From the IMG/VR virus record IMGVR_UViG_3300014137_000003: a stretch of 64,000 nt of DNA; one strand, given 5' to 3'. This DNA comes from a virus. Position numbers and translations under genes: made by a program. Shown here one piece after another: positions 2,359-64,000 of the stretch (position 1 is its first letter; every line of letters starts with the position of its first letter). The notes beneath the pieces were generated by a model. It saw only the letters and a program-made list of their open reading frames with translations, did no database searches and was not told the origin of the DNA.

Positions 2359-2362
2359 TATT

Positions 2363-3037: not shown

Positions 3038-3038
3038 T

Positions 3039-8461: not shown

Positions 8462-8529
8462 TTCTATTTAATTATCTTTGAGATTATTATATACTAGGTA
8501 TAGAAAAACTTTTGGAGGTATTTTGGTTT

Positions 8530-9552
8530 ATGGAAAAGAATAAGCCTAAGAAGAAGGTAGTTGATGTTGTTATTGATTCTTTCTTAAAGCGTGTTCAAGA
8601 GAAGGGTGTTATGCCTTGGCAGGACCCTCATACGTTCGGTATTGCTATCAACTGGGTATCTAAGAAGATGTATCGTGGTCTTAACCGTATGATTCTCCCT
8701 AACGGAGAGTATATGACTAAGAACCAGTTAAACAAGTACAATGAAGAGCACGGTGAAGACTATAAATTCCAAAAGGGTATCGAATGGTTCCCAGTTGTAT
8801 TTTATTCTTTAAAACAGTACAAAATTAAAGCAGAGGATATTAACACTGAACTAGAAGGTAATACTTTGAAGGTTGGTCAAAGTTATGTCAATCTTAAAGG
8901 TAGGAAAATCACTAGAACTAAGACTGGGTATTTCAGCGAGTATATGATTATGAAGTATTCATTGGTTGCTGAAATTCATCACTTTAAGAACTCTAAGGGT
9001 GAGACGTTACCTCGTCGGATTGGTGATACTCTAGATTCTGACTTAATGCTTTCAAAAGAAGAACCCCAAAAGGTTATTGACAGTTATGTTAAACGTTCAG
9101 GCGTTAAATTTGAAGAAATCAACGACGGTATGTCTTATTATAACCCAGTTAGGGATTTAGTGCATGTCAATGAGAGTTATAATTGGGCTAATGCCAAGTA
9201 TTCTGTTACCTTTCATGAATTAGCTCATTCTACTGGTCATGCTACTCGCCTAGACCGTATCGGGGTAACTTCCTCCGATGGATTTGCAGGTGCTAAGTAT
9301 TCAGTAGAAGAGTGTATCGCTGAGATGACTGCAGCTCTCTTGTGTCAGGAGACTGGTATTAGTGATTTCGTTACATCGGGTACTTTAAGTGAAACTAACT
9401 CTTTAGCTTATGTACAGCATTGGTCTAAGGCAATTAAAGACTTTGGTAGCAAGTTCCCTAGTATCTGTCGTCAGGCAGAGCAAGCTTATCTCTACATTCT
9501 TGGAGAAGATGAGGATAGCCAAGTTGGTGGAAGTTCTGTTACAGAAAGATAG
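8530..9552 (+). CDS. ardC: ArdC-family antirestriction protein (N-terminal ssDNA-binding domain + zincin-like metalloprotease domain)
   Basis: N-terminal PW...Y.G.N..L pattern (VMPWQDPH..MYRGLNRMIL). C-terminal FHELAHSTGHATRLDR and YSVEECIAEMTAALLC. GGAGG lies upstream of ATG 8530; the ORF track starts at 8512. Confidence 0.85.
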   Translation: MEKNKPKKKVVDVVIDSFLKRVQEKGVMPWQDPHTFGIAINWVSKKMYRGLNRMILPNGEYMTKNQLNKYNEEHGEDYKFQKGIEWFPVVFYSLKQYKIKAEDINTELEGNTLKVGQSYVNLKGRKITRTKTGYFSEYMIMKYSLVAEIHHFKNSKGETLPRRIGDTLDSDLMLSKEEPQKVIDSYVKRSGVKFEEINDGMSYYNPVRDLVHVNESYNWANAKYSVTFHELAHSTGHATRLDRIGVTSSDGFAGAKYSVEECIAEMTAALLCQETGISDFVTSGTLSETNSLAYVQHWSKAIKDFGSKFPSICRQAEQAYLYILGEDEDSQVGGSSVTER

Positions 9553-34789: not shown

Positions 34790-37700
34790 ATGTTTAAAGA
34801 CAAAGTTCAAGGGCATGGCTCTATTAAGAAATTGCGTACTGGTGCAGTTGTGTCAGTACTAACACTATCAGTACTAGGTGGGGTATCTGTTGTAAACGCA
34901 GACGAAACAACCTTAACTGAAGCTACTGCAAATAATGTAGAAGTAGTTGCGAAAGATACTACAGCTGAGGCTACTACCGGTAATGTAGCAGTAGCTTCAA
35001 CAGAAGCAAAATCTGAAACAACTCCAGTAGCACAGCCTACTGGAGTCAAAGCTGAAACGGTAGCAGAAACACCTGTTGCCCCAACAGTAACCGCAGATCA
35101 AGTTGCTAACGCTAAAGTCGTAGCAAACCAAGCTAATCAAGCATTGAACGCTCAAGAGGGTGTTGTTGCTAGTGCTGAAACAGCAGTAACTGAAAACAAC
35201 AACACTGTTACTGATTTGGGTAATCAAATCACGGAAGTTGAAAAGATTACACCTGAGGTAGTTGCCGAAGCTAAATCAGATCAAGCGAAAGCTAAAGAAA
35301 CACTAGACCAAGCTACAGCAGCTACAACAAGTGTTGAGGGTAGCCTTACTGATGCTACAAATAAAGAAGCAACTCAAAAAGGTGTAGTTGCCAAAGCTGA
35401 GTCAACTGTTGAAAAGACTGCAAGTGCAGTTGCTGATGCTGAGAAGAAAGTAGAAGCTCTTTCAGCTACAACAGATACTGCTAAATTGGATCAAGACGTT
35501 AAGGACTTGACTACAAAAGTAGCTGAAGACACTACTAATGTAAAATCTGCTAAGGACTCTCTTGAGGCAGCTAAGTTGTCTGTAAGTAACAAAGACCAAG
35601 CAATCAAGGATCAAAAATCTGTTGTAACTACTGCTGAGGGTACTGTTGAAAGCTCTTCTAAAGCGTATGATACTGCTAAAGGCAACCAAGAAGGTACTCA
35701 AACAGCTGAAAATTCAACTAAATCTGCTCTTGACGAAGCTAAGAAAGGTAAAGTTGTAACAGAAACTGTTAAAGCAGGTGAAGTTACAACTGTAACAGCC
35801 GATGGGGTATATTTGAACAAAGGTGTTGCTTATTCAAACTTTACAGAAACTAATGGTATAGTTACAAGCCAAGCTTATTTGGATGCAATCAAAGCCCTTG
35901 CTAAAGGTACAGGGTCTGTCCAAGCCGTTAAGGATGCAATCAAGAAGGGTGACGAAAATGGTAACAACCTAGCTATCGTGTCAGCTCCTACTTCATCTGC
36001 ATATAATTCATGGGTTAAAAACATGGATTTCAACTTTGCTAACACAGATTCAGCAACTAAGTTGGATGTTAACAATTTGTCTGACAGCCAGTTGACTGAC
36101 TTGGCATTGTTCTACACTGCTTTGCTTAACGACCTTCGTTTCAAAGTGGGTACTAACTTGGTAACTGTAACCGATCAAAGTGTCGCTGAAGCTAAGAAGA
36201 CAGTAACATCTATCTTTGACAAGTTGTTCCCAGCTTACAAAGGCATGGATGGAGCTCAACTTGAAGCTAATGGTTTTTGGAACTCTATGTCAGATCCTAA
36301 GAACCCTTTGAAATACACAGGTACTAGCTTGCAAGATACTGTTAAGGGTATTGACTCTGAAGATATAACTGTTATCGGGCAAAAACCCGCAAACAACGTA
36401 AGCTATGAAAACAATGACGGACGTAAACAGACTATGTTCGACTTGAAAGCTAAAATCTTTGCTAACTTGGGTAACCAACTCTATGGTACTTCAGGTATGG
36501 GGTATCTTGGTGAAGCTTACGGTGGTGTTGATGGCAAACGCTCTGACAACTTTGATCTAGCTTTGGAAGTTCTTGGTCTTAAGGGTACTTCTACAACAGC
36601 AGGTATTGATTTTGGATTCACAAACACTTACAATGGTATGATTGACCGTGCACCAAGCACTTACACTGTACTAGGTAATTCTTATGGTAAAGCTATCAAC
36701 AATCCTTACCAAACACTTGAAAACCCTAAAGAAACTGTAACTCCAGTCTATAAAGACGTAGAACGTACTATTGTAGATGATGCAGCAGTTGCTAAGGCTC
36801 AAACAAACTATAATGCAGCAGTAAAAGCTAACCAAGACGCTAAATCTAAGGTAGCTACTGCAGAGACTGCCTATAACACTGCAAAAGAAGCTCTTGCAAA
36901 CGCTCAGAAACGTTTGGCTGACTTGGTAGGGGGTACTGTAGATATTCCAGCTCTTGAGAAAGCGTTGGCTGAGGCTCAAACTCAACTTGAATCTGATCAG
37001 GCTTCTCTTCAAACTGCAAAAGAAACTCTTGCTTTGGCTAAGGCTAGTGCAACCGACAAGGCTAAGGCTTTGGAAGTAGCTAAGACTGAACTTGCTGAAG
37101 CTACAAAATCTAGCGAAACAGCCAAAGGGGTACTCGCTAAAGAAAAAGAAACTCTTGAAATTCTTGCTAAAGCCGTAGCAGTTGCTCAAACAGCTCTTAC
37201 AGACGCTCGTACTAAACAAGACGTTGCTAAAACAAAATTCATTACTGCTAGTGTTAAAGCTGAAGACCTTGCCACTAAATTGGCTAATAAGGCAACAGTA
37301 TTGGCTGACTTGAATTCTAAGCTTGCTGACGCTAAAGCTAAGTCTAGCAAACTCGCTGATGAACTTAAGACTGCTAAAGAGCGTTACGAAACTCTTAAGA
37401 AAGACTCAAACGCTAAGAACGTAGAATACCTCCGTTTGGCAACTGTAAAAGCTGAACAAGATAAGGCTGAGGCTGAAGTTGCGCGTTTGCAGGCTCTTAA
37501 AGATAAGGCTGATGCAATCGTTGCACAAGGTGGTGTTGTAGTACAGGTAGTTGACGCTGATGGTAATGTTGTTGACGTAGTGGATGGTACTAAAGCAACT
37601 AAGAACGCTGACGGCTCTATCGCTATCGAAGGTAAACAGTATGCTCTTAACAATGATGGTACTGTATCTAGGGTAGTTGTTCCAACAGCTGACACTGGGG

Positions 37701-37933
37701 TATCTTCTGCTAACGCTAACGGCACAGGGGTAGCAAACAATAACTTTGTTACAACTAGCTATGCAAAAGGTTTTGCAACATCTTACTATGCAGGAAGCTA
37801 CACAGATTCTGCTAATAAGTCTAAATCTCTACCAAACACTGGTGAGGCTGACTCATCTGTATGGGCTAAGGTGGGTGTAGGGTTGCTTTCAGCTCTTACG
37901 CTTGGATACTTTATGAAACGTAAAGAAAACTAA
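34790..37933 (+). CDS. PrgA/Sec10-like surface-exclusion-type LPXTG coiled-coil protein
   Basis: YSIRK-type signal (GHGSIKKLRTGAVVSV). Two long Ala/Lys/Glu coiled-coil arms flank a globular domain containing LSDSQLTDLALFYTALLNDLRFKVGT (Sec10/PgrA-domain-like, recalled from memory). LPNTGE followed by a TM helix and KRKEN. Confidence 0.7.
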   Translation: MFKDKVQGHGSIKKLRTGAVVSVLTLSVLGGVSVVNADETTLTEATANNVEVVAKDTTAEATTGNVAVASTEAKSETTPVAQPTGVKAETVAETPVAPTVTADQVANAKVVANQANQALNAQEGVVASAETAVTENNNTVTDLGNQITEVEKITPEVVAEAKSDQAKAKETLDQATAATTSVEGSLTDATNKEATQKGVVAKAESTVEKTASAVADAEKKVEALSATTDTAKLDQDVKDLTTKVAEDTTNVKSAKDSLEAAKLSVSNKDQAIKDQKSVVTTAEGTVESSSKAYDTAKGNQEGTQTAENSTKSALDEAKKGKVVTETVKAGEVTTVTADGVYLNKGVAYSNFTETNGIVTSQAYLDAIKALAKGTGSVQAVKDAIKKGDENGNNLAIVSAPTSSAYNSWVKNMDFNFANTDSATKLDVNNLSDSQLTDLALFYTALLNDLRFKVGTNLVTVTDQSVAEAKKTVTSIFDKLFPAYKGMDGAQLEANGFWNSMSDPKNPLKYTGTSLQDTVKGIDSEDITVIGQKPANNVSYENNDGRKQTMFDLKAKIFANLGNQLYGTSGMGYLGEAYGGVDGKRSDNFDLALEVLGLKGTSTTAGIDFGFTNTYNGMIDRAPSTYTVLGNSYGKAINNPYQTLENPKETVTPVYKDVERTIVDDAAVAKAQTNYNAAVKANQDAKSKVATAETAYNTAKEALANAQKRLADLVGGTVDIPALEKALAEAQTQLESDQASLQTAKETLALAKASATDKAKALEVAKTELAEATKSSETAKGVLAKEKETLEILAKAVAVAQTALTDARTKQDVAKTKFITASVKAEDLATKLANKATVLADLNSKLADAKAKSSKLADELKTAKERYETLKKDSNAKNVEYLRLATVKAEQDKAEAEVARLQALKDKADAIVAQGGVVVQVVDADGNVVDVVDGTKATKNADGSIAIEGKQYALNNDGTVSRVVVPTADTGVSSANANGTGVANNNFVTTSYAKGFATSYYAGSYTDSANKSKSLPNTGEADSSVWAKVGVGLLSALTLGYFMKRKEN

Positions 37934-49937: not shown

Positions 49938-51365
49938 ATGAATGGGTATCAATTATATTTAGAGAATATTATAAACGCTCTAGCTAGGGTTGGTATTCAT
50001 TACCCTCTCAAACTAGAAAGCTATGAGGACTTATTTTACACTTCAGAATCTCTAGGTTCGTTCCTAGAGATTAACTCATTTTTACAAAGAGTTGGTGAAG
50101 GTTATAGTATTGCAGGCTTAGATGAGTCTGTAACTTATAGGTCTTACTGGTATTCTGAGTTTTATTTAGAGTTTCAGGAACGTGTCTTGACTACTGATTT
50201 CTATAAGGCTTTAGAGTCTGAGGAAGAAAGCATAGAGGACGTAGAAGACTTAGAAAGTACAGAAGACGTAAAAGAAGAACAAACAAACTCAGAAGAAAAA
50301 GAAGTTGCTTCTATAGTTTCACCTTTTGGTAAGTATTCTAGTATAGTTGGTACCACGTTAGATGGGTTTGACTCTTATGGTGTCCCATTCGATGTTGAGG
50401 AGGAAGATGATGGCTCTGAAACGAAAGAAGAAAACACTGATAGGGAAAAAGAAGATGTTTCTAATTACTCAGGTTTAACTGGTACTAATTCGGATGGTCT
50501 AGATGTCTATGGGGTAGATTTGGAAGAAGAAGTTCCAGACGAAGATGTCTCAAACAAAGGAGAATCGGAAGAAAAAGACTCGGAAGAAGTTGAAGACAAA
50601 GACGAAGTATCTGAACCTACTGAATTTGTTTCTACAGACTTTGATTTTCCAGAGGAAAACGTTGAGGATATAGTAAGTACTGTTGAAGTGCCGACTAGCG
50701 AGACTGTGTCTTCTGACGGTTTTGACCTTTATGGTGTTGAGTTGGAGGATTTCGATGAAGAAGACTCTGAAGATTATAACGAAGAGGACGATCCGAACAA
50801 TCCAGAAAGTGGAGTAGTGGTTGACTTGGTAGGTAATGAGTCTGAGGGGTATGTAGAGAACTTCGAAGAGTACGACGAAGAAAACGACCCAGATAACCCA
50901 GATAGTGGTTCTTATGTTGATTTAGCAACTCCTAGCTTTGAAGAGTATGACGAAGAAAACGACCCCGACAATCCAGATAATGGTAACTATCAGGATTTAG
51001 TAGGTGAGGGGTACGAAGAGAACTTCGAAGAGTACGACGAAGAAAACGACCCAGATAATCCCGACAATGGTAATTATCAGGATTTAGTATCTTCTAGCTA
51101 TGATGACGAAGATGAAGATTATGAAAATGACCCCGATAACCCAGAAAATAGTATTTATCGGGATGTTGTTGAATCCTCTAGCACCCAAGGTTACGTTGAG
51201 TCCCCACAACAAACACAAGTTGCCCCTAATCCTCCACAAGCTAAACCTAAGCAGGTTAAATCTCCAGTAAATAAAAACATGGAAAGTACGCAAAATATGT
51301 TGAACTTTTTAGGAAGGTTTGAAAAAACTATACTAGGAAAGGTGAAGAAAAATGGTAAAAACTAA
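49938..51365 (+). CDS. hyper-acidic repeat protein (475 aa)
   Basis: Three DG(F/L)D.YGV.(F/L) motifs, five Y(D/N)EE(N/D)DP(D/N)NP(D/E).G.Y.DL repeats and a short basic C-terminus. Confidence 0.7.
   Translation: MNGYQLYLENIINALARVGIHYPLKLESYEDLFYTSESLGSFLEINSFLQRVGEGYSIAGLDESVTYRSYWYSEFYLEFQERVLTTDFYKALESEEESIEDVEDLESTEDVKEEQTNSEEKEVASIVSPFGKYSSIVGTTLDGFDSYGVPFDVEEEDDGSETKEENTDREKEDVSNYSGLTGTNSDGLDVYGVDLEEEVPDEDVSNKGESEEKDSEEVEDKDEVSEPTEFVSTDFDFPEENVEDIVSTVEVPTSETVSSDGFDLYGVELEDFDEEDSEDYNEEDDPNNPESGVVVDLVGNESEGYVENFEEYDEENDPDNPDSGSYVDLATPSFEEYDEENDPDNPDNGNYQDLVGEGYEENFEEYDEENDPDNPDNGNYQDLVSSSYDDEDEDYENDPDNPENSIYRDVVESSSTQGYVESPQQTQVAPNPPQAKPKQVKSPVNKNMESTQNMLNFLGRFEKTILGKVKKNGKN
50771..51170 (+). 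repeat. five in-frame tandem repeats (~60-75 bp) in the acidic protein gene
   Basis: YNEEDDPNNPESGVVVDLVG / YDEENDPDNPDSGSYVDLAT / YDEENDPDNPDNGNYQDLVG / YDEENDPDNPDNGNYQDLVS / YENDPDNPENSIYRDVVE. Confidence 0.85.
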
Positions 51366-54003: not shown

Positions 54004-54054
54004 GTCTTAAATTGTAGTAGTATTTTTAGTTAATTTGGTAGGAGTGTGAACTTA

Positions 54055-55356
54055 ATGGTAGAAGAGAGAACGTTTGCTAGGTACTATCGTCCGAATTCTT
54101 TGGGTACATACGTTGGTAACCAGCAAGTAAAGGATACTGTTCGTAATGTAATTAGTAGGGGTCGACGCCCTCAGGTAGTTCTTATTACAGGGTTTACTGG
54201 TAGTGGGAAGACCACCTTGTCTCGTATTTTGATGAAGGAGTATGAGTGTACTGGTCGCAAGAAGGGTGAAGATGCATGTGGGGTATGTGAGTCTTGTAGA
54301 GAGTTTGATGAATACATTAAGACTGGCGTATTAGATAATTTGCCAGATGTTAATGAAATTAACGTTGCCGAAAACTCAGGTAAGGGTGATGTTGTTGACC
54401 TCTTAGAAGATAGGGTATATGCTCCAAACTATGGAAAGTATAAATATTATTACTTTGACGAAGTGCATAAGGCATCTGACGCTTTGCAGAACTACTTGCT
54501 AAAACCTATTGAAGAACCTGAAGAGCATGTTGTTTATATTCTAGCTACAACTGACCCAGATAAGTTATTGCCTACTATTAGGAATAGGGCACAGCTTGTA
54601 CTAAACATTAAGAAGGCTAGTGAGCGAGATATTCTAACCTTGTTAGGTTCTATCTGTAAGCAAGAAGAAATCAAATTCGAAGAAGAAGCACTTCGTATGA
54701 TTGCAACTCGAGCCGATTATATTATTCGTGAATCTTTAAACTATCTACAACAGGTAGTGGACGCTAATGGCGAATGTATGGCTGAACAGGTATCTAAAGA
54801 GTTCGACTTAGTTACAGACTCTGTTATTTTTAACTTCTATAATGCTTATATCCAACGAGATTATATGCGTTATATGACTGTTTTACACAATATAAAGACA
54901 ACCATGACTTTTGAGTCTTTCTTAATCTCTCTAAGGAACTTCACTACTAGGGGTATCTATATCCTTAATGGAATCGAAGTAGAGGGTATGCACAAGGAAG
55001 AAATTCGTAAGTTCTCTGAGTTGTTTGGTAGATTTGATGTAACTCAGTTATCTCTGTTGTTATCTAGGTTACTAACTCTAGGTAATGGTGATATTGAAGC
55101 TAACTTACTTAACTTCATTTATCGCCAGAACTTAGAGGATGGTATTGCTACTAAATATAGTGCTGAAGAGGAACTGGAAGTTGCTCCTAAGGTAGCTATC
55201 TCTAAGAAAGAAGAGATTTCTCAACGAAACCATAATAAGGAAGTTGCTCGTGAAGAAGCAGAACTTAAAGGACAGTTGGCTTTATCTTCTGAGGTAGAGA
55301 GGGTATCTCTCTTGGACAATTTGGACAGTTTCCAAGTACAGAAAGTAATAAAATAA
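54055..55356 (+). CDS. DnaX-like (DNA polymerase III gamma/tau-type) AAA+ clamp-loader subunit
   Basis: ARYYRPNSLGTYVGNQ, Walker A GFTGSGKTT, Zn module CGVCESC, Walker B/DExx YYYFDEVHK, LLKPIEEPEEHVVYILATTD and sensor PTIRNRAQ. Confidence 0.8.
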   Translation: MVEERTFARYYRPNSLGTYVGNQQVKDTVRNVISRGRRPQVVLITGFTGSGKTTLSRILMKEYECTGRKKGEDACGVCESCREFDEYIKTGVLDNLPDVNEINVAENSGKGDVVDLLEDRVYAPNYGKYKYYYFDEVHKASDALQNYLLKPIEEPEEHVVYILATTDPDKLLPTIRNRAQLVLNIKKASERDILTLLGSICKQEEIKFEEEALRMIATRADYIIRESLNYLQQVVDANGECMAEQVSKEFDLVTDSVIFNFYNAYIQRDYMRYMTVLHNIKTTMTFESFLISLRNFTTRGIYILNGIEVEGMHKEEIRKFSELFGRFDVTQLSLLLSRLLTLGNGDIEANLLNFIYRQNLEDGIATKYSAEEELEVAPKVAISKKEEISQRNHNKEVAREEAELKGQLALSSEVERVSLLDNLDSFQVQKVIK

Positions 55357-55366
55357 GAGGTTGATT

Positions 55367-56206
55367 ATGAAGAAAAGATTGTACACATCTTTGGTTTGTG
55401 GGGCTATGCTATTAGGGGTAGGTTTCACCCCAGTGGTTAGTCATTTTGTCAATAACGATACTAATATTGTATATGCTCTTGACAATTTTGGTAATAGTAG
55501 TGATAATAGTAATTCCACTAAAGAAAATACAACTAATTCTGCTGAAACAAATAGTGGAACTACTGGTGATGTAAATACAGGTACTGGGCAACGTCAAGGA
55601 AGCGATGTTTCTGACACCTTAAAGGGTTTTAAACCTGTAACTAAGGAAGACATGGCTAAGGCTAGGCAAAGTTCGTCATGGTTAACTGACATCATTGGTT
55701 ATGCTATTAGTCTCCTTGTAATCTTAACGTTCTTGGGTATTGGACTTATAACTGCGTTAGATGTTCTTTATATGGCTTTCCCACCAGTTCGTAGCTTTTT
55801 ATACACTGCAGGAACAGATGGTGCAGGCGGTATGTCAGGTATGAATATGTCAGGTAATAGCTCTATTGGTGGTCGTCAGTGGGTATCTGATGAAGCTGTT
55901 CAGGTAGCATCTATGCTTGGTGGTTCTGCTCAAGCTACTGGTCATGCTCCAGGAATGGGTATGGGAATGCCAATGGGTATGATGGGAATGCCGGGAGCTC
56001 AAAGCCCTCAGAAACAACAAGGTGGTGGACGTGTAGCTATCGGGGTATATCTACAGAAAAGGGTTGTATTCCTATTCTTCCTTGGTTTAGCGAGTGTATT
56101 GCTCTTCACTTCAGCATTCACCGACTTTGGTATTAACGTAGGTGGCATGGTATTAGAGTTGGTGAGTATGCTCGTTGAGAAGATGTCTAATATCCACTTC
56201 GGGTAG
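55367..56206 (+). CDS. envelope protein family member 1 (signal peptide + C-terminal two-helix membrane module; Met/Gly-rich loop)
   Basis: Signal peptide MKKRLYTSLVCGAMLLGVG. The module LDVLYMAFPPVRSFL ... WVSDEAV ... GVYLQKRVVFLFFLGL is shared with 57717, 58644 and 60086. Confidence 0.65.
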   Translation: MKKRLYTSLVCGAMLLGVGFTPVVSHFVNNDTNIVYALDNFGNSSDNSNSTKENTTNSAETNSGTTGDVNTGTGQRQGSDVSDTLKGFKPVTKEDMAKARQSSSWLTDIIGYAISLLVILTFLGIGLITALDVLYMAFPPVRSFLYTAGTDGAGGMSGMNMSGNSSIGGRQWVSDEAVQVASMLGGSAQATGHAPGMGMGMPMGMMGMPGAQSPQKQQGGGRVAIGVYLQKRVVFLFFLGLASVLLFTSAFTDFGINVGGMVLELVSMLVEKMSNIHFG

Positions 56207-56229
56207 AATTTTAGAAAGTTGGTTTATGT

Positions 56230-56514
56230 ATGAATGAAGTTCTTGAAGTTATAAAAGATAAGTATTTCTCTAAAGGTAAATCAGCTGCAACTAATCAATT
56301 ACAGAGGGTGAGGGTTAGGAACGCAATTCTTAAGTTGTGTGAAGACCAGTTAAGTTCACCTGACGATATTCTAGTATTCGAGGTAATGAGTGATTCATTA
56401 CCTTTTGCAGTTGCAGTTTTAGAGGATGAACTATTAGTTTCTCAGTTTGATGTAGTACAGATTTCTGAGACACTATTCGAAGCCAGGATGGTAACATTGG
56501 AAGGGGTAATTTAA
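56230..56514 (+). CDS. hypothetical protein (94 aa)
   Basis: ORF between envelope genes whose stop overlaps the next start (TAATG). Confidence 0.5.
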   Translation: MNEVLEVIKDKYFSKGKSAATNQLQRVRVRNAILKLCEDQLSSPDDILVFEVMSDSLPFAVAVLEDELLVSQFDVVQISETLFEARMVTLEGVI

Positions 56515-56975
56515 TGGCAAGTGTTTTATATTCATCAAATTTGATTTTGTCCTCTTCTTGGTGGACTGGTAGTTCTCAGACTTTGGTAAAGTCAATCGTT
56601 GACGAGTACAATAATTTAGTAGTAGAGGAAGTATCTAATGGAAATTCTGTAAATTACTTAGATTTAGCAATAATCACAGTTGACGGTTCTAGGAATTCAA
56701 CTCCCTTGGGGTATTATTACTATGCAGTAGCTAAACGTTTAAGTTTGGAGTACATTGTAGTAGAAAATATTTTATCAAGGTATGCTGAACTTATTAAAAA
56801 CAATTTACTTTCAAAAAATATTGTGGTTGTTTATGGCATTCTTAAGTTCTCTCCTAGAGACTCGTATAAGGTTAGTGTTAAAAGTTCTTCTCGAATTAGT
56901 TCGTTAAGGGAAAACGTTAGGGTTAAACTTAATCCATATTGGAAATATGAGATAGAAAAGTTGCCCTTTAGATAG
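56514..56975 (+). CDS. hypothetical protein (153 aa)
   Basis: TAATG overlap. No motif. Confidence 0.55.
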   Translation: MASVLYSSNLILSSSWWTGSSQTLVKSIVDEYNNLVVEEVSNGNSVNYLDLAIITVDGSRNSTPLGYYYYAVAKRLSLEYIVVENILSRYAELIKNNLLSKNIVVVYGILKFSPRDSYKVSVKSSSRISSLRENVRVKLNPYWKYEIEKLPFR

Positions 56976-56984
56976 GAGTTTCTT

Positions 56985-57692
56985 ATGGAAGGTAAGTCTC
57001 ACCGAGTGGGTGGAGTTCTAGCAGCACTTGGCGGATACTATATGTTAAAGGAGCAGGGTTACTTGATAGAAGGGGTTACTCCCTTAGTTCAGTTAGCTAT
57101 CATCTATCCTTTCAGTATTGTAGGTTCTTTGTTACCAGACCAAGACCATCATGAGGAGTCAGCTCCTATGAAGGATGTAATCTCTTTAACATTCTGTAAG
57201 ATATTACACTTAACAACCAAACTAAGAAAAAGAATGAAGGCTCAGGGGGTTAGCGAGAAAAGTACGTTGTATCGGGTCTTAGGGGTATTTGATGCCAAGC
57301 ATAGGTCTTGGCAAACTCACTCCGACTTATCCTTTTTCTTAACTTGTTGGATGTTGTTAGGGGTAATGAGCTCTAGTGGTGGGTTACTTACTGCTCAAGG
57401 AATTATCATCAAACTAATTTCTATAGGACTTATATTAGGATTGTTGTCACACCTTATACTAGATAGTTTAACCCCTAGTGGTGTATGGTGTCTGTCGTTC
57501 GTAGGGTTAAATAAGTTGATAGGGAGAAAGGTATTCCCCGAAAAGATTCACTTCGTACCAAATCGTAAGTTCTTCTCAACAGGAGGAACTTGGGAAAGTT
57601 GGTGGCGATGGGGTATGGGGGTAGTAAGTTTCTTGTTATTCTTCTACATTATATATACTATGTTACCATATCAACTAATATTCAAATTTTAA
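56985..57692 (+). CDS. YdjM/DUF457-like membrane-bound metal-dependent hydrolase
   Basis: KSHRVGG, GSLLPDQDHHES, KHRSWQTHSDLSF and HLILDSLTPSGVW, interleaved with TM helices. AGGAG upstream. Confidence 0.55.
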   Translation: MEGKSHRVGGVLAALGGYYMLKEQGYLIEGVTPLVQLAIIYPFSIVGSLLPDQDHHEESAPMKDVISLTFCKILHLTTKLRKRMKAQGVSEKSTLYRVLGVFDAKHRSWQTHSDLSFFLTCWMLLGVMSSSGGLLTAQGIIIKLISIGLILGLLSHLILDSLTPSGVWCLSFVGLNKLIGRKVFPEKIHFVPNRKFFSTGGTWESWWRWGMGVVSFLLFFYIIYTMLPYQLIFKF

Positions 57693-57716
57693 AATAACTA
57701 AGGAGTTTTATAAGTT

Positions 57717-58571
57717 ATGAAGAGAAAAGCTAAAAAGTCTTTATACGGCATAGTTTTACTTAGTGCCATGGCACTTGGTGGTCTTTCAAGCACTATTGTT
57801 GGTGCAGTAACTACCGAACAAGCAGAGTCAAACTTAACAACAGGTATCTATAATAAGATGGCAGAGCAAGAATACACCCTTGAGGGTGGTGGTTCTGTAG
57901 ACGGTAAGCAGTTGTTTAACAAAGAAAACAACGGTTCTAGTGGTACTAATTACGATGTAAACGAAGCTCAGTTCCAGGACTTAACTAAAGCAGAACAACA
58001 ACGTTTTACAACTGAGTTGGTAGAACACGCTAACGAACAGGTTGGTGAAAATGGTGTTACTAACTCTACTGTAACAGGTTTGTTGCAAAAACTTCAAACC
58101 AAGAAGGGTATGGGTTCTAAGCTCTTAACAGAAATTCTTAAGAATACCAAACCTGACTTCGTTAGGGGTAACGCTATCTATCAACCATTTAGTGGTTTGG
58201 TTGGTACAGTTTTAGGTTTGGGAGCAATCCTTATCCTAGCTTTCCTTGGTATCATCATGGTATCAGACTTGGCTTACATCACTCTTCCTCCATACCGTGC
58301 TTTAATGGGTGGTGGTGAAGGTGAAGGTGGTAAACGTGACGGAGCAGCTAAATTCTTAGTATCTCACGAAGCGGTATCAGCAGTAATCGAGTCAGAAGGA
58401 AGCAGCGAAGGTAGTCAGGGTGGCTACAAGTACGCAGTAGGGATTTACTTGAAACGTCGTGCTATTGCTTTGATTTTATTAGGATTAGCCTTACTTTACT
58501 TGGTACAAGGTCAAATCTATACACTAGTAGGTTACATCATGGACTTGGTACAAGGTTTCCTCGGATTTTAA
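57717..58571 (+). CDS. envelope protein family member 2
   Basis: Signal peptide, then YQPFSGLVGTVLGLGAILILAFLGIIMVSDLAYITLPPYRAL ... LVSHEAV ... GIYLKRRAIALILLGLALLYLVQGQIY. Confidence 0.7.
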   Translation: MKRKAKKSLYGIVLLSAMALGGLSSTIVGAVTTEQAESNLTTGIYNKMAEQEYTLEGGGSVDGKQLFNKENNGSSGTNYDVNEAQFQDLTKAEQQRFTTELVEHANEQVGENGVTNSTVTGLLQKLQTKKGMGSKLLTEILKNTKPDFVRGNAIYQPFSGLVGTVLGLGAILILAFLGIIMVSDLAYITLPPYRALMGGGEGEGGKRDGAAKFLVSHEAVSAVIESEGSSEGSQGGYKYAVGIYLKRRAIALILLGLALLYLVQGQIYTLVGYIMDLVQGFLGF

Positions 58572-58590
58572 GCCAGTGGTCGGTCAATGC

Positions 58591-58622
58591 AGCTTGGGGG
58601 TAGCCTCAAGCTTCTTTTATTT
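58591..58622 (+). terminator. terminator-like hairpin
   Basis: AGCTTGGG-ggtag-CC(t)CAAGCT followed by TCTTTTATTT. Confidence 0.5.
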
Positions 58623-58643
58623 AGAGTGGAGAGTTGAAGAACT

Positions 58644-60083
58644 ATGAGTAAGAAGGAAGAATATTTAGATATATTTGGTAGTAGTTCAAAACCCAAAAAT
58701 AAGAAAAAAGTTAGCAAAGGATTGATACTTGTCTTAACTCTCCTTACTTTAGGGGTAGTAGGGGGTGTTGGTGCTTTTGCATATAATTCTTATATGACGG
58801 TAAGTACTACTAACATTGTTGTAAAAGCCGATACTTTAGGTCAACAAAAGGCAAGGGCTTCTAAGTTGAAGAAAGAACGTTTAGATCTTCAAAGAACCTT
58901 AAATAAGAAAAAGAAAGAAAAGGAGAAGAATAACGATATTCTTCACCCTATCAAGGAAGCTAAATTAAATAGAGCTATAAAAGATCTTGAGAGCAGTATT
59001 AAAAAACACGATAAGGCTATTGCAGAGTTAGATAAGAAGATTTCCTCCAACCCAAATCAAAAGAAAATTGCAGAACATGAACGTTCTAGAGCTCTCAACC
59101 GTAGAGATGGTGGTAAAGAGTTCGCTGATAAGGAGTGGGACCGTACTAGTAAGGCTGAAGTAGATGCTCTTAACGGTGCAGATACTTCAGGTAACTCCAG
59201 TGATTCAGGTAAGTCAGGTTCTGATGGAGAAGGTGGCAAATCTAAAGCTAAGTCTAAAACCAAGGAAAAGAAGAAGGGTGGTAAGACTTCTGCAAACTGG
59301 AACGGTGGTAAAAACCAGGGGGTAAACACTGACAAGGTTGAGCGTACTTACGTTGAAGATTCTAGAAGACATAAGACAGATGCTATTAGGTTTATCTCTA
59401 ATGACCCAGCAACTGGAGCTTTAATGAATAGTATCATGAATACTATTAACTCTTCTGTAGGTGGCAAGTACTTAGTAGTTTATTCTTCTGATGGTATGTT
59501 CTCTTTCAGTAACACCATTTATAAGCCTATGGCTCAGGAAGATAAACGTAAAGTTATGGAGCTTGCCTTAAAGACTATCAAAGAGTCACAATTACCTACA
59601 AAGGTAAAAAACAAGGTAACTAACTTTATTGCAGACCAAGATAATGCTACTGCAGATGCCATTCAGGCTCTTAACTCTGATACTTCTTGGGAACTATCTA
59701 AGGGGTACGCTTGGTTCAGACCTTTTAGTGGGGGTATTTCTACTGTATTTGGTTTCTTGGCAATTGTTATCTTTGTATTTCTTTCAGCGTCTATTGTATT
59801 TGACCTAGCTTACTTAACTATCGGTGGTTTTAGAACATTACTCGATAATAAGGATGGTAAACCTAACCTAATTACTGGAGAAGCTTGGGAGACTGCAAAA
59901 GAAGTTGACCTTAGTTTGCAATCGGGTACTTATCGTGAGTACATTAGTGTATATTTTGGAAAGAGGGTCGGAATTTTTATCTTTACGGCTATTGTATTGA
60001 TTTACTTAATTAGTGGTCAAATCTACGATATCTCGTCTTGGTTCTTGAAGGTCTTCGAAGAAGTATTTCAGATTAGAGGTTAG
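58644..60083 (+). CDS. envelope protein family member 3 (N-terminal anchor, Lys-rich coiled-coil, shared juxtamembrane domain and two-helix module)
   Basis: TM anchor LILVLTLLTLGVVGGVGAFAY. Then WFRPFSGGISTVFGFLAIVIFVFLSASIVFDLAYLTIGGFRTL ... SVYFGKRVGIFIFTAIVLIYLISGQIY. Confidence 0.7.
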   Translation: MSKKEEYLDIFGSSSKPKNKKKVSKGLILVLTLLTLGVVGGVGAFAYNSYMTVSTTNIVVKADTLGQQKARASKLKKERLDLQRTLNKKKKEKEKNNDILHPIKEAKLNRAIKDLESSIKKHDKAIAELDKKISSNPNQKKIAEHERSRALNRRDGGKEFADKEWDRTSKAEVDALNGADTSGNSSDSGKSGSDGEGGKSKAKSKTKEKKKGGKTSANWNGGKNQGVNTDKVERTYVEDSRRHKTDAIRFISNDPATGALMNSIMNTINSSVGGKYLVVYSSDGMFSFSNTIYKPMAQEDKRKVMELALKTIKESQLPTKVKNKVTNFIADQDNATADAIQALNSDTSWELSKGYAWFRPFSGGISTVFGFLAIVIFVFLSASIVFDLAYLTIGGFRTLLDNKDGKPNLITGEAWETAKEVDLSLQSGTYREYISVYFGKRVGIFIFTAIVLIYLISGQIYDISSWFLKVFEEVFQIRG

Positions 60084-60085
60084 GT

Positions 60086-60910
60086 ATGAAAATAAGAAAA
60101 CTAATCGTGCTAGGGGGTGTTATATGCTCCTTAGCTTTCTCTTGTATAGGGGTAGTAACTCCTACAGTTCATGTTAGAGCAGAAACCCAAACTAGTTTCA
60201 GTTCTGACACTATAAAGATCAAATCTTCTTCCTACTTAGGTGATGAGTCTGCAATGTCCTTATTTATGCAGGTTGCTAAGGAGAGTAACGCTCACTCAGG
60301 TAGGGAAGTTCTATCTTACGATGGAAAGAGCAAGGTCATCTACTTTGACAACGCAGTTTATCAGGATATGTACCTAGAGGAGCGACAAGACTTTATGAAG
60401 TTTGCTCTTAAAATGGTAAACGATTCTAAGATAGATTCGAAAGGGAAGAATAAAATCTACAATTTTTTAACTTCCCAGGATAACGGTTCTGCTAAAATAT
60501 TGAGAAACCTAAAAGATGATGTGTCTGCCGATATTGCAAGTGGTCGTGAGTGGTGGGAACCCTTTAACGGACCAGTTACAACTATCTTAGGTCTTGTAGC
60601 CTTAGCTGTTTTTATTGGTACAGGTATTTCATTTGTAATAGATATAGCTTATATGGTACTTCCTATGGTTAGAACTATGATAGATAATAACCATAACGGC
60701 AAGTTACCTAAGCTTGTCTCATCTCAAGCTTACTTTGTAACAAGAGACCAAGACATGATGGGTAAAGGAAAGTATATGGGTAGTTACTTCATGAAGCGTA
60801 TATGGGTTGTTGCTCTATTATTCATAGCCTTGGGGTATTTGAATAGTGGGTTTATCTTTGATATTATTAGTAGATTCATGCAAGTATTCTCGGATGCTTT
60901 TGCAGAGTAG
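60086..60910 (+). CDS. envelope protein family member 4
   Basis: Signal peptide, then WWEPFNGPVTTILGLVALAVFIGTGISFVIDIAYMVLPMVRTM ... SYFMKRIWVVALLFIALGYL. The ectodomain segment MKFALKMVNDSKIDSKGKNKIYNFLTSQDN parallels MELALKTIKESQLPTKVKNKVTNFIADQDN in 58644. Confidence 0.7.
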   Translation: MKIRKLIVLGGVICSLAFSCIGVVTPTVHVRAETQTSFSSDTIKIKSSSYLGDESAMSLFMQVAKESNAHSGREVLSYDGKSKVIYFDNAVYQDMYLEERQDFMKFALKMVNDSKIDSKGKNKIYNFLTSQDNGSAKILRNLKDDVSADIASGREWWEPFNGPVTTILGLVALAVFIGTGISFVIDIAYMVLPMVRTMIDNNHNGKLPKLVSSQAYFVTRDQDMMGKGKYMGSYFMKRIWVVALLFIALGYLNSGFIFDIISRFMQVFSDAFAE

Positions 60911-60927
60911 TAGGAAAGGATTGGCAA

Positions 60928-63900
60928 ATGTTTAGAAAATTTGTTAATAGGTTATTAAGTTTAGGGTTAATCTTTATACTGTTAGGTGGTACTATAGTAC
61001 CTAGCCTTAACAGTGTTGTTTTTGCGGATGATGATAGTTCAGTAGTTACCTCTGACGAAGAGGATACTGGTTCAGATAAGTCAGATAGCAAAAAAGAGGA
61101 CAGTAAGAAAGACAGCAAGAAAGATAGCGAAGGTAACGAAAAGGGTGCAAAGTCTGACACTAAGGGTGCATCTTCTGACGGCTCTGCTAATAGTAGGGTT
61201 TCTACTTATATTAACTTCGCAGAAGGTAAGACTTTAGATTCGGCTTTAGTTAAGAGCTTGAATACTGAGCAACTCCGTTTTATGGGGGTATTCCTCAGTA
61301 ACTTCTATACTCCATGGATGACTGACCTCGGTAGTGGTAGTGATAAGACTTCTAAGGCAGCTCAAGAAGCTATGCAAACTGCCCTCAAAGACTATGCAGG
61401 TTTCGATGAAACTACTGCTAAAACCTTTGCAAACTACTTGCAGGGTATTACTAGGGCATCAGCTCAAAAGTTAACTCTTCGCTTTAAAGGTAAGCAGTCT
61501 GATGCTAAAACTGTAGACGCCCCTAAAGATTCTAAGATTAAAGGAAAAGAGTTTACTTATGCTGACTTACTTCTTATGGCTAGTGGGTATGTTTATGAGC
61601 ATAAGAAAGATCCAAGTTTTGAATCTTATGGTGGTAAGGACTACGGTGAAGGTGATTACCGTTATGGTTATCTAGGTTTTGAGAACTCTGACGGTTTCCA
61701 ACCCGTATTTAGTTTCGATACTCAAGCTAAAGATAATACAGCATCTATGGTAGCTTTCCTTAAAGCTATGGAAATGGTGGATACTGACAAAGGTTACGGT
61801 TTCGCAGCCTTAGACTTTAAGGACAAAGAGATTGATGTAACTGCAGAAGGCTTTAAAAAGTTGCTAGAGACTGTAGGAGAGAAGAACTTACAAAGTGGTT
61901 CCATCTATGGTGCACCCCTTAAGGTTTCTGCCTTTGGTGATATCATTTGGATGGGAGCAAACCACCAATATGTAATTCTTCCAGGTGCGATGAATCCCTT
62001 TACTTGGCAACGTACCGACAAGGATGGTAAAGATTACGGTAAGGCAGGTAATGCTCTTAACGTAGCAAATGCTCAAATGTTAGCCCATATTGGTAACAAC
62101 TCGTTGGGTAGTGTGAGCAAGGAAGAAGAAAAAAAGAGGGGTACGTTCTATGAACTATCACCACAAAACGGTGATCCTTTCCCTATGTCGAAGAGGGGCG
62201 AGGTTACTGACCTTAGGTTGGTAATTGGTTCTTCTGTCACTGATACCCAGCACTGGGGGGATACCTTGGCAGGTGCCTTTGGTAACAACAGCTCAGCTCA
62301 AGATAAACTCGGTCAGGCAATTAAGAAGGACTTCTTAAAACAACGTGGTCTAGACCTTAATGATAAAACTAAATTCTCTGGTGAGTATAATTCCCTTTAT
62401 GATATCTTTAGGGACGACAGTACAAAGCTACCTACTTTGGGGTATTCAGATGGCAAGGTTAATGTAATGGGTGGTCTTGCCTTACTTGATAGCTCAGGTT
62501 CTTATGGTTCTAAAAGCGATACTGGTGACTCATCTGAAGACTCTTATGGTAAAACTGATGATGAAGGTGGTAAATATAACCTAGTCCAAAAAGCAGATAT
62601 CATCAACGAAGCAGGAGATGGCTTTGAAAGTGCGTTTGGTAGTGCTAACGTTTCAGGAAATACTTGGGGTAACTCCTACAAAGAAACAAAAGACCAAGGT
62701 TATGCAAAATTAGATTCTTCAGGAACTGCTAAAACTACTTGGAAATATCTCTACACTACTTATCTTGTTGCAGGGTTAACAGATAACGGTAAGTTTGCAG
62801 GTGGCGACTACTTGGGGTATCGTATTAACTACCCAGCATCAGGGAATGGTAAAAATAAAGGTTTGCCAGATATCACAGGTGAATCTATTAACCTCTCAAA
62901 AGAAGATGAAGATGACTCAGTAACTAAAGCAATTCGTGACTGGTTGTATTACTTGTTACACCCTACAGACGGGTTTAAATATTTTGTAACTTGGATTACT
63001 AATAAAATCAAGGCTTTCATTATCGGTTGGCACAATGACATGGCTGGTACAGAAGGTGTTGGTGTACTTCCAGGTACTACTAAATATATTGGTTTTAGTG
63101 GGTATGTAACTACACCAGAACTTCAAGATATGTCTTGGACGAACGCCATGTTAAACTGGTATAAGTCAATCATTATTTACCTTATCATTGGTTTCTTTGT
63201 AATTATGATGGCTTATACACTACTAGGAATTTTAACATTCCAGAAATCAATACTTGGATTAGTTCTGTTTTCTGTGCTTGTATATACTCCTATCATAGTT
63301 GTAACTCAGTCTGTTAACTTGTCTAACAGGTTTGCAAACTTTGTATTTGGTGACAAGTTCGCCTATTGGGGTATCGTTCAGCAACAATCTTACTTCGCAG
63401 ACTTGGCTGACTCTATTGACTCATCTAATTCAACTTATAAGAATTACTTGTTAAATCTTTATAACGAGAATGCAAAAGAGTCAGGAAATCAGGGTGGCGA
63501 CAACATTGTACTTAGGTGGCAAGCTCCTAAGAAGATGGCAAACTTGGTTATGTCTAAAAATGAAGAGAACATCTACTCGGATGACTTCAAGCAAATGATT
63601 CAAGTGGTTACTGGTGGTAAGAACTCGGTTGAACACTTTACTGGTAATACATCTTCTACATATCTATATCGTTCATATACGGATATTGCAAACGTTTCAA
63701 TGTTTATGTATGGGGATCTCGTTTCTAACGGTCAAGCACGTGAAGGTGTAGACACTAAGACGGATACTTCTAACACTACTAGATGGTCTAAGGGTCTTAA
63801 AGACAACTGGGCTAACTTCACAACTAGGTATACAGACGATAGGAAAGACGGATATGGGGTAAAAGACTCTGAGGGTTCTACCGATGGTAGCCAAGCTTAC

Positions 63901-64000
63901 CGTGTAAGGTTGCCACTTGCAGGTAATATCTACTCAGATGCAGCGGATGTTGCAAAACAAGGTACGATTAAAGACTTAACACTAGGTAAGTATGTGGGTA
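60928..64000 (+). CDS. very large secreted/membrane protein, 5' part (>1,020 aa, runs off the window)
   Basis: Own translation from ATG 60928 (GGAAAGGA upstream) finds no stop to base 63999. Signal peptide LLSLGLIFILLGGTIVPSLNSVVFA, an acidic/Lys-rich linker and a ~700-aa ectodomain. Two TM helices lie near 63170-63300 (SIIIYLIIGFFVIMMAYTLLGIL / ILGLVLFSVLVYTPIIVV). It is not in the ORF track because it lacks a stop. Confidence 0.7.
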   Translation, partial: MFRKFVNRLLSLGLIFILLGGTIVPSLNSVVFADDDSSVVTSDEEDTGSDKSDSKKEDSKKDSKKDSEGNEKGAKSDTKGASSDGSANSRVSTYINFAEGKTLDSALVKSLNTEQLRFMGVFLSNFYTPWMTDLGSGSDKTSKAAQEAMQTALKDYAGFDETTAKTFANYLQGITRASAQKLTLRFKGKQSDAKTVDAPKDSKIKGKEFTYADLLLMASGYVYEHKKDPSFESYGGKDYGEGDYRYGYLGFENSDGFQPVFSFDTQAKDNTASMVAFLKAMEMVDTDKGYGFAALDFKDKEIDVTAEGFKKLLETVGEKNLQSGSIYGAPLKVSAFGDIIWMGANHQYVILPGAMNPFTWQRTDKDGKDYGKAGNALNVANAQMLAHIGNNSLGSVSKEEEKKRGTFYELSPQNGDPFPMSKRGEVTDLRLVIGSSVTDTQHWGDTLAGAFGNNSSAQDKLGQAIKKDFLKQRGLDLNDKTKFSGEYNSLYDIFRDDSTKLPTLGYSDGKVNVMGGLALLDSSGSYGSKSDTGDSSEDSYGKTDDEGGKYNLVQKADIINEAGDGFESAFGSANVSGNTWGNSYKETKDQGYAKLDSSGTAKTTWKYLYTTYLVAGLTDNGKFAGGDYLGYRINYPASGNGKNKGLPDITGESINLSKEDEDDSVTKAIRDWLYYLLHPTDGFKYFVTWITNKIKAFIIGWHNDMAGTEGVGVLPGTTKYIGFSGYVTTPELQDMSWTNAMLNWYKSIIIYLIIGFFVIMMAYTLLGILTFQKSILGLVLFSVLVYTPIIVVTQSVNLSNRFANFVFGDKFAYWGIVQQQSYFADLADSIDSSNSTYKNYLLNLYNENAKESGNQGGDNIVLRWQAPKKMANLVMSKNEENIYSDDFKQMIQVVTGGKNSVEHFTGNTSSTYLYRSYTDIANVSMFMYGDLVSNGQAREGVDTKTDTSNTTRWSKGLKDNWANFTTRYTDDRKDGYGVKDSEGSTDGSQAYRVRLPLAGNIYSDAADVAKQGTIKDLTLGKYVG

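Follow-up and report, generated by a model that had tools for sequence, protein, structure and literature searches.

A family of paralogous two-helix membrane proteins in a probable pXO16-type conjugation locus of a plasmid-like element from metagenomes

The DNA analyzed here, referred to as the window, is a stretch of 64,000 nucleotides (nt) from the IMG/VR virus record IMGVR_UViG_3300014137_000003. We focused on the gene cluster at its end (positions 55367-64000), which codes for four related membrane proteins, here named A, B, C and D, a YdjM-like hydrolase, two small soluble proteins and the N-terminal part of a giant membrane protein. This segment is very likely the first, membrane-component half of a conjugation locus of the type found on pXO16 (pBTHD789-1 / pAM65-52-2-350K), the 350-kb plasmid of Bacillus thuringiensis serovar israelensis. 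The element that carries it is co-directionally transcribed, plasmid-like, approximately 180-185 kb long and so far known from metagenomes only. In the window, which has a G+C content of 37.6%, every sizeable open reading frame (ORF) lies on the + strand, and the genes of the cluster overlap or are 2-24 nt apart, a spacing that continues into the giant protein and hydrolase genes. The features of the cluster, together with the gene adjoining it upstream, are listed below (aa, amino acids; TM, transmembrane; anatomy from hydropathy).

54046-55356, + strand: clamp-loader-like AAA+ ATPase resembling the DNA Pol III delta' subunit (Pfam DNA_pol3_delta2, E 1.7e-25; PHROG clamp loader, E 9e-49)
55367-56206, + strand: A-type paralog, 279 aa, with an alternative TTG start at 55361; signal peptide, S/T/N-rich ectodomain, two-helix module and long G/M-rich cytoplasmic loop
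56230-56514, + strand: small soluble ORF of 94 aa without TM segment; 92-aa homolog in pXO16 (E 9e-8)
56514-56975, + strand: small soluble ORF of 153 aa without TM segment; Pfam Bac_DNA_binding at E 3e-4, just under the cut-off
56985-57692, + strand: polytopic membrane metal-dependent hydrolase of the YdjM/DUF457 family, 235 aa (PF04307, E 5.7e-13)
57717-58571, + strand: B-type paralog, 284 aa
58591-58612, + strand: hairpin resembling an intrinsic terminator, with a 9-bp stem including 5 GC pairs, followed by the T-run TCTTTTATTT
58644-60083, + strand: C-type paralog, 479 aa, optional within the set; cytoplasmic N-tail, anchor, K/E-rich coiled-coil-like and G/S/K-rich ectodomain, D-like juxtamembrane segment and two-helix module
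60086-60910, + strand: D-type paralog, 274 aa, always with the giant gene directly downstream; signal peptide, small alpha/beta ectodomain and two-helix module
60928-64000, + strand: N-terminal 1,024 codons of the giant polytopic membrane protein, open to the window end; full length of 1,623 aa in near-identical contigs

The paralogs and the giant protein

The kinship among A, B, C and D goes far beyond chance, and the four are true paralogs. In BLASTP comparisons, C and D are 35% identical across 202 aa (E 2e-39), B and C 30% identical across 137 aa (E 2e-19), and A and B 24% identical across 181 aa (E 4e-6). Moreover, a hidden Markov model (HMM) of the family, run against all six-frame ORFs of the window, matched exactly these four proteins, with E-values of 2.5e-55 for A, 2.7e-118 for B and 1.5e-109 for D. 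Hydropathy analysis finds, in each protein, one hydrophobic segment near the N-terminus and two near the C-terminus and, combined with the K/R residues flanking the loop between the two C-terminal helices, predicts that both termini are outside. An initial annotation, made from the sequence, had described four ORFs that share a C-terminal two-helix module, each behind a signal peptide or anchor and a variable ectodomain, and both the BLASTP matches and the hydropathy and conservation profiles bear this description out. The N-terminus of C reads as an uncleaved anchor, not a signal peptide, while mature A, B and D measure approximately 250 aa.

The motifs that had been listed for the module are present in the family, namely PF.G before helix 1, D(L/I/V)(A/L)Y...R after it, (V/I)(S/T).(E/Q)A in the loop, Y(L/F).(K/R)R before helix 2, and GQIY, with the qualification that A lacks PF.G. 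Similarly, the juxtamembrane segment ALK...NF(I/L)..QDN, attributed to three of the paralogs, is clear in C and D but divergent in B. Across 41 family members, the residues D186, A215, Y234, R238, L252 and G255 (D numbering) are invariant, and conservation peaks in the juxtamembrane segment, helix 1, the stretch that follows it, the stretch preceding helix 2, and helix 2 itself, being lower in the ectodomain and in the middle of the loop. Invariant residues are found toward the cytoplasm (a D past helix 1, S..A within the loop, and Y...R preceding helix 2), and the inter-helix loop, 30-60 aa long in the family, carries invariant S, A and Y residues.

The gene following D had been read as a huge protein with a signal peptide, a 700-aa ectodomain and at least two TM helices, continuing beyond the window. 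In near-identical contigs, the complete protein consists of a signal peptide or anchor, an ectodomain of about 700 aa, 2 TM helices, an extracytoplasmic domain of about 560 aa, about 5 TM helices and a basic cytoplasmic tail. Hydropathy thus counts approximately 7 TM helices past the N-terminal segment, 2 of them inside the window and about 5 near the C-terminus, and approximately 1,250 aa are predicted to be extracellular. As single sequence, the giant protein had no match in Pfam, NCBIfam, PHROG or the PDB, nor did a 4-sequence profile of it match the PDB by sequence; the comparison with TcpH, the VirB6-like protein of the Clostridium perfringens plasmid pCW3, gave E 0.85, that is, no sequence similarity. 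It is the only protein of the locus with at least five TM helices and the only VirB6-like candidate, possibly an extended VirB6-like subunit of a translocon. VirB6-like proteins of Gram-positive T4SSs have 4-6 or more TM helices, and their extended forms measure 700-900 aa.

The cluster has a single sizeable intergenic gap (72 nt), directly 3' of the B gene, and this is where the terminator-like hairpin sits. A hairpin after B occurs in four of five independent lineages, represented by the window element, the metagenome loci L009/L012, the metagenome locus L008, and pXO16, with unrelated sequences in each; it is missing from the fifth, L015. Such an arrangement would agree with B being produced in larger amounts than the proteins encoded downstream of it. 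B-type proteins are also the best-conserved and most numerous subtype, accounting for 75 of the best 150 family representatives.

Downstream genes and collinearity with pXO16

The genes beyond the window end were read from near-identical contigs, which are 97-98.6% identical to the window tail and represent strain variants of the element. The exact D protein is found on metagenome contigs of 180-185.5 kb, and the locus is also present on the IMG/VR contig UViG 3300008274_000007 (180,840 bp), which is filed as a viral genome; this filing is probably due to phage-like replication genes, such as the clamp loader. The downstream genes follow in this order.

Downstream 1, directly after the giant gene: 618-aa hydrolase with N-terminal TM helices, followed by a region resembling GDSL/SGNH and by a CHAP domain (E 4e-8)
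Downstream 2: 237-aa bitopic protein
Downstream 3: 365-aa TM-hairpin protein
Downstream 4: two soluble proteins of 509 and 413 aa
Downstream 5: 693-aa Walker-A ATPase, VirB4-like
Downstream 6: 315-aa bitopic protein
Downstream 7: 731-aa protein with 2 TM helices (Pfam FtsK_SpoIIIE, E 3e-16)
Downstream 8: SpoVG, followed by an SNF2 helicase

The initial annotation had made its idea of a transfer apparatus depend on a translocation ATPase encoded beyond the window, and two ATPases are present there, one VirB4-like and the other a membrane-anchored FtsK/SpoIIIE protein, in addition to the CHAP hydrolase. As a single sequence, the 693-aa ATPase gave a weak DUF87/HerA match only, while with a 30-sequence profile of its family the top PDB entry was 4AG5, the ATPase domain of VirB4 (E 4.3e-4). 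The PDB sequence search returned nothing for the 618-aa hydrolase and the 315-aa bitopic protein. The two bitopic proteins, of 237 and 315 aa, are candidates for a VirB8-like or TcpC-like component, which would have an NTF2-like fold.

We then searched 72,556 plasmids by tblastn with B and the VirB4-like ATPase, and obtained a match to pXO16, the only plasmid of the set in which the paralog family was found. Both elements have the gene order clamp loader, A, 94-aa ORF, YdjM, B, D and giant gene, followed by the hydrolase position, the homolog of the 365-aa protein, the VirB4-like ATPase, FtsK, SpoVG and the SNF2 helicase. In the annotation of pXO16, this corresponds to an AAA ATPase, proteins of 254, 92 and 122 aa, a metal-dependent hydrolase, proteins of 292, 269, 1,834 and 710 aa, several more genes, a 678-aa protein, FtsK/SpoIIIE, SpoVG and a helicase. 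The BLASTP matches between the two sets were as follows, the other pairs giving weaker ones.

Clamp loader and pXO16 AAA ATPase: 37% identity, E 3e-96
A and pXO16 254-aa protein: 33% identity, E 9e-20
YdjM-like protein and pXO16 metal-dependent hydrolase: 35% identity, E 3e-48
B and pXO16 292-aa protein: 34% identity, E 3e-47
C and pXO16 269-aa protein: E 1e-28
D and pXO16 269-aa protein: 29% identity, E 1e-31
Giant protein and pXO16 1,834-aa protein: 35% identity across 1,025 aa, E 2e-177
365-aa protein and pXO16 445-aa protein: E 3e-51
VirB4-like ATPase and pXO16 678-aa protein: 38% identity, E 6e-150

Conjugation of pXO16 requires the tip locus (transfer of israelensis plasmid), a 25-kb region of 16 coding sequences (CDSs) that includes two ATPases and the hydrolase TipB, and which, according to reviews, was described in 2018 as a novel type IV secretion system (T4SS) (PMC9673590; PMC6199540). 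Transfer proceeds as single-stranded DNA, by a mechanism distantly related to that of pCW3, and among loci of this type a dependence of transfer on the locus is known for pXO16 only; all CDSs of the plasmid are co-oriented, many of them are paralogs, and initially no T4SS was recognisable (PMC9673590; PMC6199540). Its relaxase and oriT are described as unidentified, and its aggregation locus is separate from the tip locus (PMC9673590). The pXO16 stretch that begins with the A homolog and runs through FtsK measures 24.3 kb and holds 18 RefSeq CDSs, three of them tiny, which fits the stated size and CDS number of the tip locus; extension past FtsK would instead add many small CDSs. From this agreement, we infer that the homologs of A, B and D belong to the tip locus.

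As a whole, the element looks like a smaller relative of pXO16. Both are giant plasmids or plasmid-like elements with all genes on one strand and with adhesin genes located elsewhere. They differ, however, in that the proteins compared are 29-38% identical and the host here is low-GC and non-Bacillus; the element, at about 185 kb, has approximately half the size of the 350-kb pXO16; there are four paralogs instead of three, C being an extra D-like copy; and the hydrolase, which occupies the place of TipB, combines SGNH and CHAP regions, whereas the pXO16 protein at this position has a weak NlpC/P60 match (E 7e-4).

Relatives, spread and neighbouring genes

Searches of A-D against Pfam, NCBIfam and PHROGs returned nothing meaningful. 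When the 41 family members were compared with Pfam at E <= 5, no pilin family (PF04956, PF18895, PF05513) and no PF12648 appeared among the matches; MotA_ExbB (5 of 41 members, best E 0.0033) and SpoIIIAF (3 of 41) were scattered and weak, and were judged to be noise from TM composition. AlphaFold2 modelled D with a predicted local distance difference test (pLDDT) score of 65 overall and approximately 85 in the ectodomain, and B with a pLDDT of 72, the TM helices reaching about 80-85 (helices at 148-189 and 236-282). The D model had no match at E <= 1e-3 among the viral structures of BFVD in Foldseek searches, and the top matches of the B model, Wzz co-polymerases, were not significant (E 1.6). 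Kinship with TcpE/VirB3 was also tried and rejected, as TcpE, the best pCW3 match, reached E 0.15, and hhalign against the TcpE family alignment gave a probability of 4%; in a single-sequence hhalign run, the family's PF.PVTT stands opposite PFP.PITT of TcpE, at a probability of 12%.

Regarding known Gram-positive machines, the locus resembles the Tcp/MPF_FA systems of pCW3, Tn916 and ICEBs1 in having an FtsK/SpoIIIE-type coupling protein with N-terminal TM helices (TcpA-like), a VirB4-like ATPase, a peptidoglycan hydrolase, a single large polytopic protein that is the candidate for an "extended VirB6", a member of the YdjM family as is TcpI, and small two-TM proteins, of which TcpD and TcpE are needed for transfer in that system (PMC12857230). 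TcpI of pCW3 matches the YdjM family at E 3.5e-27 and directly follows the VirB6-like TcpH, so that a YdjM-like gene emerges as an accessory that recurs in Gram-positive T4SS loci of the FtsK type; TcpI is reported to be dispensable for pCW3 transfer (PMC6137059). In contrast to the Tcp system, A-D have ectodomains of 100-300 aa, which TcpD and TcpE lack, and the giant protein is approximately twice the size of TcpH. Comparison of the cluster proteins with those of pCW3 and pCF10, by BLASTP and HMM, gave no significant match, the sole links being the YdjM family and the FtsK/SpoIIIE domain.

The family is large. A profile search of 1.84 billion representatives of 50% identity clusters retrieved 1,252 clusters at E <= 1e-3, 343 of them at E <= 1e-30; the ten clusters looked up, and all 120 matches listed in a first search with the family, were of metagenome origin and had no functional name, being called "hypothetical protein" at best. 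The only isolate-derived copies found are those of pXO16. The order A..YdjM-B-[C]-D-giant is kept in five further loci. The metagenome loci L008, L009, L012 and L015 are found on contigs of 216-367 kb, and the contigs of 216, 236, 245 and 367 kb carry the clamp loader, A, small ORFs, YdjM, B, an optional C, D and the giant gene. Both pXO16 and L008 have three paralogs (A, B and D, no C), and the other loci four. Some C/D-type relatives have, in place of the ectodomain, Ig-like Big_2 repeats with S/T/G-rich linkers that together span 400-500 aa. Scanning the GTDB species representatives with the giant protein yielded one contig of a metagenome-assembled genome (MAG) and no isolate host; this contig, the one carrying L012 (CAKAFX010000005.1, 235,995 bp), is binned in an "uncultured Mogibacterium sp." MAG and is probably a plasmid-like element swept into that bin. 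Stop codons are present in the C-type gene region of L012, a possible sign of decay. With megablast, the cluster region of the window had no match among the plasmids or among 50,697 phage records.

More distant systems were also observed. A hypothetical protein of Clostridium baratii (NCBI) is 51% identical to the VirB4-like ATPase, and therefore related elements may have cultured hosts in genera other than Bacillus. Distant Bacillus plasmids of 143-216 kb (e.g., 145 kb in Bacillus sp. PM8313 and 216 kb in B. velezensis) encode a large FtsK/SpoIIIE protein together with a VirB4-like ATPase that is 24-28% identical to the one described here. In the B. velezensis plasmid, genes for an AAA ATPase, a YdjM-like hydrolase, wall hydrolases and a giant protein of 2,023 aa follow in similar order, and the 275-aa protein encoded directly upstream of the giant gene is a marginal match to the family (E 0.013, in a small search).

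Oral Streptococcus harbours Inocles, giant plasmid-like elements known from metagenomes only, which are reported to encode VirB4 and VirD4, to measure 245-395 kb and to have a GC content of 24-32%; the paper describing them does not mention pXO16 (Kiguchi et al. 2025, PMC12340149). The element studied here shares with them the giant, metagenome-only, plasmid-like character, and members of the family also occur on contigs of 216-367 kb. Membership in the Inocles was rejected, as both its size (about 181-185 kb) and the GC content of the window are outside the Inocle ranges, and the InoC marker PF13814 had no match among the window ORFs scanned. The contigs of L008, L009, L012 and L015 fall in the Inocle size range, the GC content of their stretches being approximately 40%, and a relationship between pXO16 and Inocles seems possible.

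As for the remaining genes of the cluster, the clamp-loader gene also adjoins the A-type gene upstream in L008, L009, L015 and pXO16, and it probably belongs to the replication backbone and not to the channel. The two small ORFs had been taken to be cytoplasmic, in agreement with neither having a hydrophobic segment. A counterpart of the 94-aa ORF is found at the same place in L008, L009 and L015, whereas the 153-aa ORF, which matches a PHROG DNA-binding protein at E 0.009 and whose counterparts in L009 and L015 are faint PF00216 matches, possibly codes for an HU/IHF-like DNA-binding protein. The YdjM-like assignment made initially is well founded, as the protein scores 49.2 bits against PF04307 (cut-off 29), and its residues H6, D52, D54, H55, H106, H112, H156 and D160 are invariant across four loci.

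Elsewhere in the window, adjacent genes for an FHA-domain protein, a PP2C phosphatase and a Ser/Thr protein kinase form a signalling trio (1606-5006), and an ArdC-like protein with an ArdC N-terminal domain and a zincin-like metallopeptidase is encoded at 8512-9552; ArdC-like proteins are typical of conjugative elements. Two large LPXTG surface proteins are encoded at 30055-34419 and 34790-37933. With its AgI_II_C2, Antigen_C and Adhesin_P1_N domains, the former is a member of the antigen I/II family; the gene initially called PrgB-like thus codes for an antigen I/II-family LPXTG adhesin, approximately 21 kb upstream of the cluster. This adhesin could plausibly correspond to PrgB or to the aggregation genes of pXO16, and it hints at a streptococcus-like host. 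Finally, positions 49938-51365 encode an extremely acidic protein of 475 aa in which EEYDEENDPDNPD-like units are repeated and for which there was no family match.

The paralogs as candidate mating-channel subunits

Taken together, the VirB4-like and FtsK-type ATPases, the hydrolase, and the collinearity with the stretch most likely to hold the tip locus, which has been experimentally linked to conjugation, agree with the mating-channel option of the initial annotation, and the locus is very likely a pXO16-type transfer locus, i.e., a Tip-type conjugative T4SS. The best reading of the whole, which we consider probable, is that all four paralogs serve as structural subunits of its mating channel in the membrane. 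The set of A, B and D, with C as an optional member and B in excess, would assemble around or beside the 1,623-aa giant protein, the candidate extended VirB6, so as to form the translocon and a wall-spanning extension, with B as the candidate major subunit. The conserved cytoplasmic face of the paralogs may dock the VirB4-like ATPase and/or the FtsK-type coupling protein, while the ectodomains would reach into peptidoglycan opened by the CHAP/SGNH hydrolase, and the YdjM-like protein would be the counterpart of TcpI, probably a dispensable accessory. The apparatus is not of the unrecognised type that had been envisaged, since the pXO16 system has been known as a novel T4SS since 2018 (PMC9673590; PMC6199540).

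Several observations weigh against this reading. It is anatomy and context that suggest a channel role for the paralogs, along with their stoichiometry and partners, and it is the stated size and CDS number of the tip locus that suggest that it includes the A, B and D homologs. Collinearity with pXO16 covers the whole backbone, with SpoVG and the SNF2 helicase following in both elements, and for this reason adjacency to T4SS genes is weaker functional evidence than it appears. The VirB4 assignment comes from a match at E 4e-4 and the weak DUF87 match. Pfam identified no relevant T4SS component in the paralog family, which is not of the TcpE family either (4% in hhalign; no PF12648), and HMM searches for T4SS or pilus relatives, as proposed initially, found no counterpart in the pilin families of Pfam or among all ORFs of pCW3 and of positions 1-50 kb of pCF10, where nothing came under E 0.15. 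Foldseek searches with the D and B models, which are of moderate confidence, gave no PDB match at E <= 1e-3 and listed no pilin. Moreover, no relaxase was recognised among the window ORFs in general scans, which did not include a dedicated search.

The loose likeness to VirB2/TrbC-type pilins seen in the initial annotation raises the alternative of a pilus or stalk, in which B would be the major, VirB2-like polymerising subunit pulled from the membrane, and A, C and D minor or tip subunits of a filament or wall-spanning tube. VirB2 and TraA pilins have a signal peptide and two hydrophobic helices, with both termini outside, and the paralogs share this predicted topology. In monoderm Patescibacteria, T4SS loci contain arrays of 2-11 divergent VirB2-like paralogs (PMC12102498; PMC12857230), a clustering comparable to that of A-D; in addition, the hairpin after B suggests stoichiometric excess, as for major pilin genes, the Big_2 Ig-like repeats of C/D-type relatives recall tip adhesins, and scanning electron microscopy of pXO16 matings showed cell-cell "connections" (PMC6199540). 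Nevertheless, we find this alternative unlikely. None of the 41 members matches the pilin families at E <= 5, and neither AlphaFold model matches a PDB pilin. A mature pilin has about 60-100 aa and a short basic loop, whereas A, B and D, at 3-4 times that size, have a folded N-terminal ectodomain and a long conserved cytoplasmic loop, whose invariant residues point to a fixed cytoplasmic partner and not to a pilus lumen. The hairpin is, moreover, missing in one lineage (L015). It is also doubtful that the paralogs act outside the channel, as surface proteins anchored in the membrane that would stabilise mating pairs, recognise recipients or mediate entry exclusion. The ectodomain is indeed the variable part of the family, ranging from approximately 100 to more than 500 aa with Big_2 repeats and S/T/G-rich linkers, but the fixed A/B/D triad, the TM helices and the cytoplasmic residues are conserved from pXO16 through these elements; dedicated LPXTG adhesins are encoded separately upstream, and in pXO16 itself aggregation maps to a locus distinct from tip (PMC9673590).

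Two further explanations appear highly improbable. A phage-derived module (for injection, lysis or a holin-like function) of a giant phage or phage-plasmid would be in line with the viral listing of the element in IMG/VR, with the neighbouring clamp loader, which matches phage families, and with pXO16 having been called phage-like for its co-oriented CDSs and many paralogs (PMC6199540). Against it stand the lack of PHROG matches for A-D, the YdjM-like protein, the small ORFs and the giant protein, the lack of a BFVD match for the D model, the empty megablast search of 50,697 phage records, and the VirB4-like and FtsK-type ATPases of the locus; pXO16, for its part, transfers by conjugation, and plaques were never obtained (PMC6199540; PMC9673590). 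We give just as little credence to an envelope system unrelated to transfer that happens to adjoin the T4SS genes and would serve to remodel the wall, respond to stress or secrete proteins. Backbone-wide collinearity means that adjacency proves little, and the YdjM homolog of pCW3, TcpI, is not needed for transfer (PMC6137059); yet the paralog genes are tightly packed (2-24 nt or overlapping) into the giant and hydrolase genes, the size and CDS number of tip fit a start at the A homolog (PMC9673590), and the giant protein is the sole VirB6-like candidate of the locus.

The filament is, of the readings that remain, the most interesting one, as VirB2 and VirB5 are reported to be absent from Gram-positive T4SSs outside Patescibacteria (PMC12857230; PMC12102498). 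If true, it would provide Firmicutes with a functional counterpart of VirB2/VirB5, with B made in excess by means of an attenuating terminator, and it would explain the cell-to-cell "connections" in pXO16 matings. Returning to the channel reading, the pXO16 transfer machine ranks among the conjugation systems that are least understood, and reviews state that, beyond the two ATPases and the hydrolase, it has no recognisable core components (PMC9673590; PMC6199540), and the accessible literature, of which the primary tip-locus paper was not part, holds no description of the paralog family. What is new here is that pXO16 is linked to many giant elements, metagenome-only in the sources inspected, together with the definition of the paralog family, specific to this machine, and of its triad, the TcpI/YdjM parallel and the terminator after B.

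Overall, the pXO16-type machine is common on giant plasmid-like elements that have been seen in metagenomes only and, as the machine is the same, B. thuringiensis carrying pXO16 offers a genetic system in which they can be modelled. The analysis singles out candidate subunits, namely the A/B/D hairpin triad, the giant protein and the TcpI-like YdjM protein, all of which are open to deletion and imaging. Should the paralogs indeed be the wall-spanning part of the channel, they would bear on how Gram-positive T4SSs cross a thick cell wall in the absence of VirB2, VirB5 and VirB7-10.

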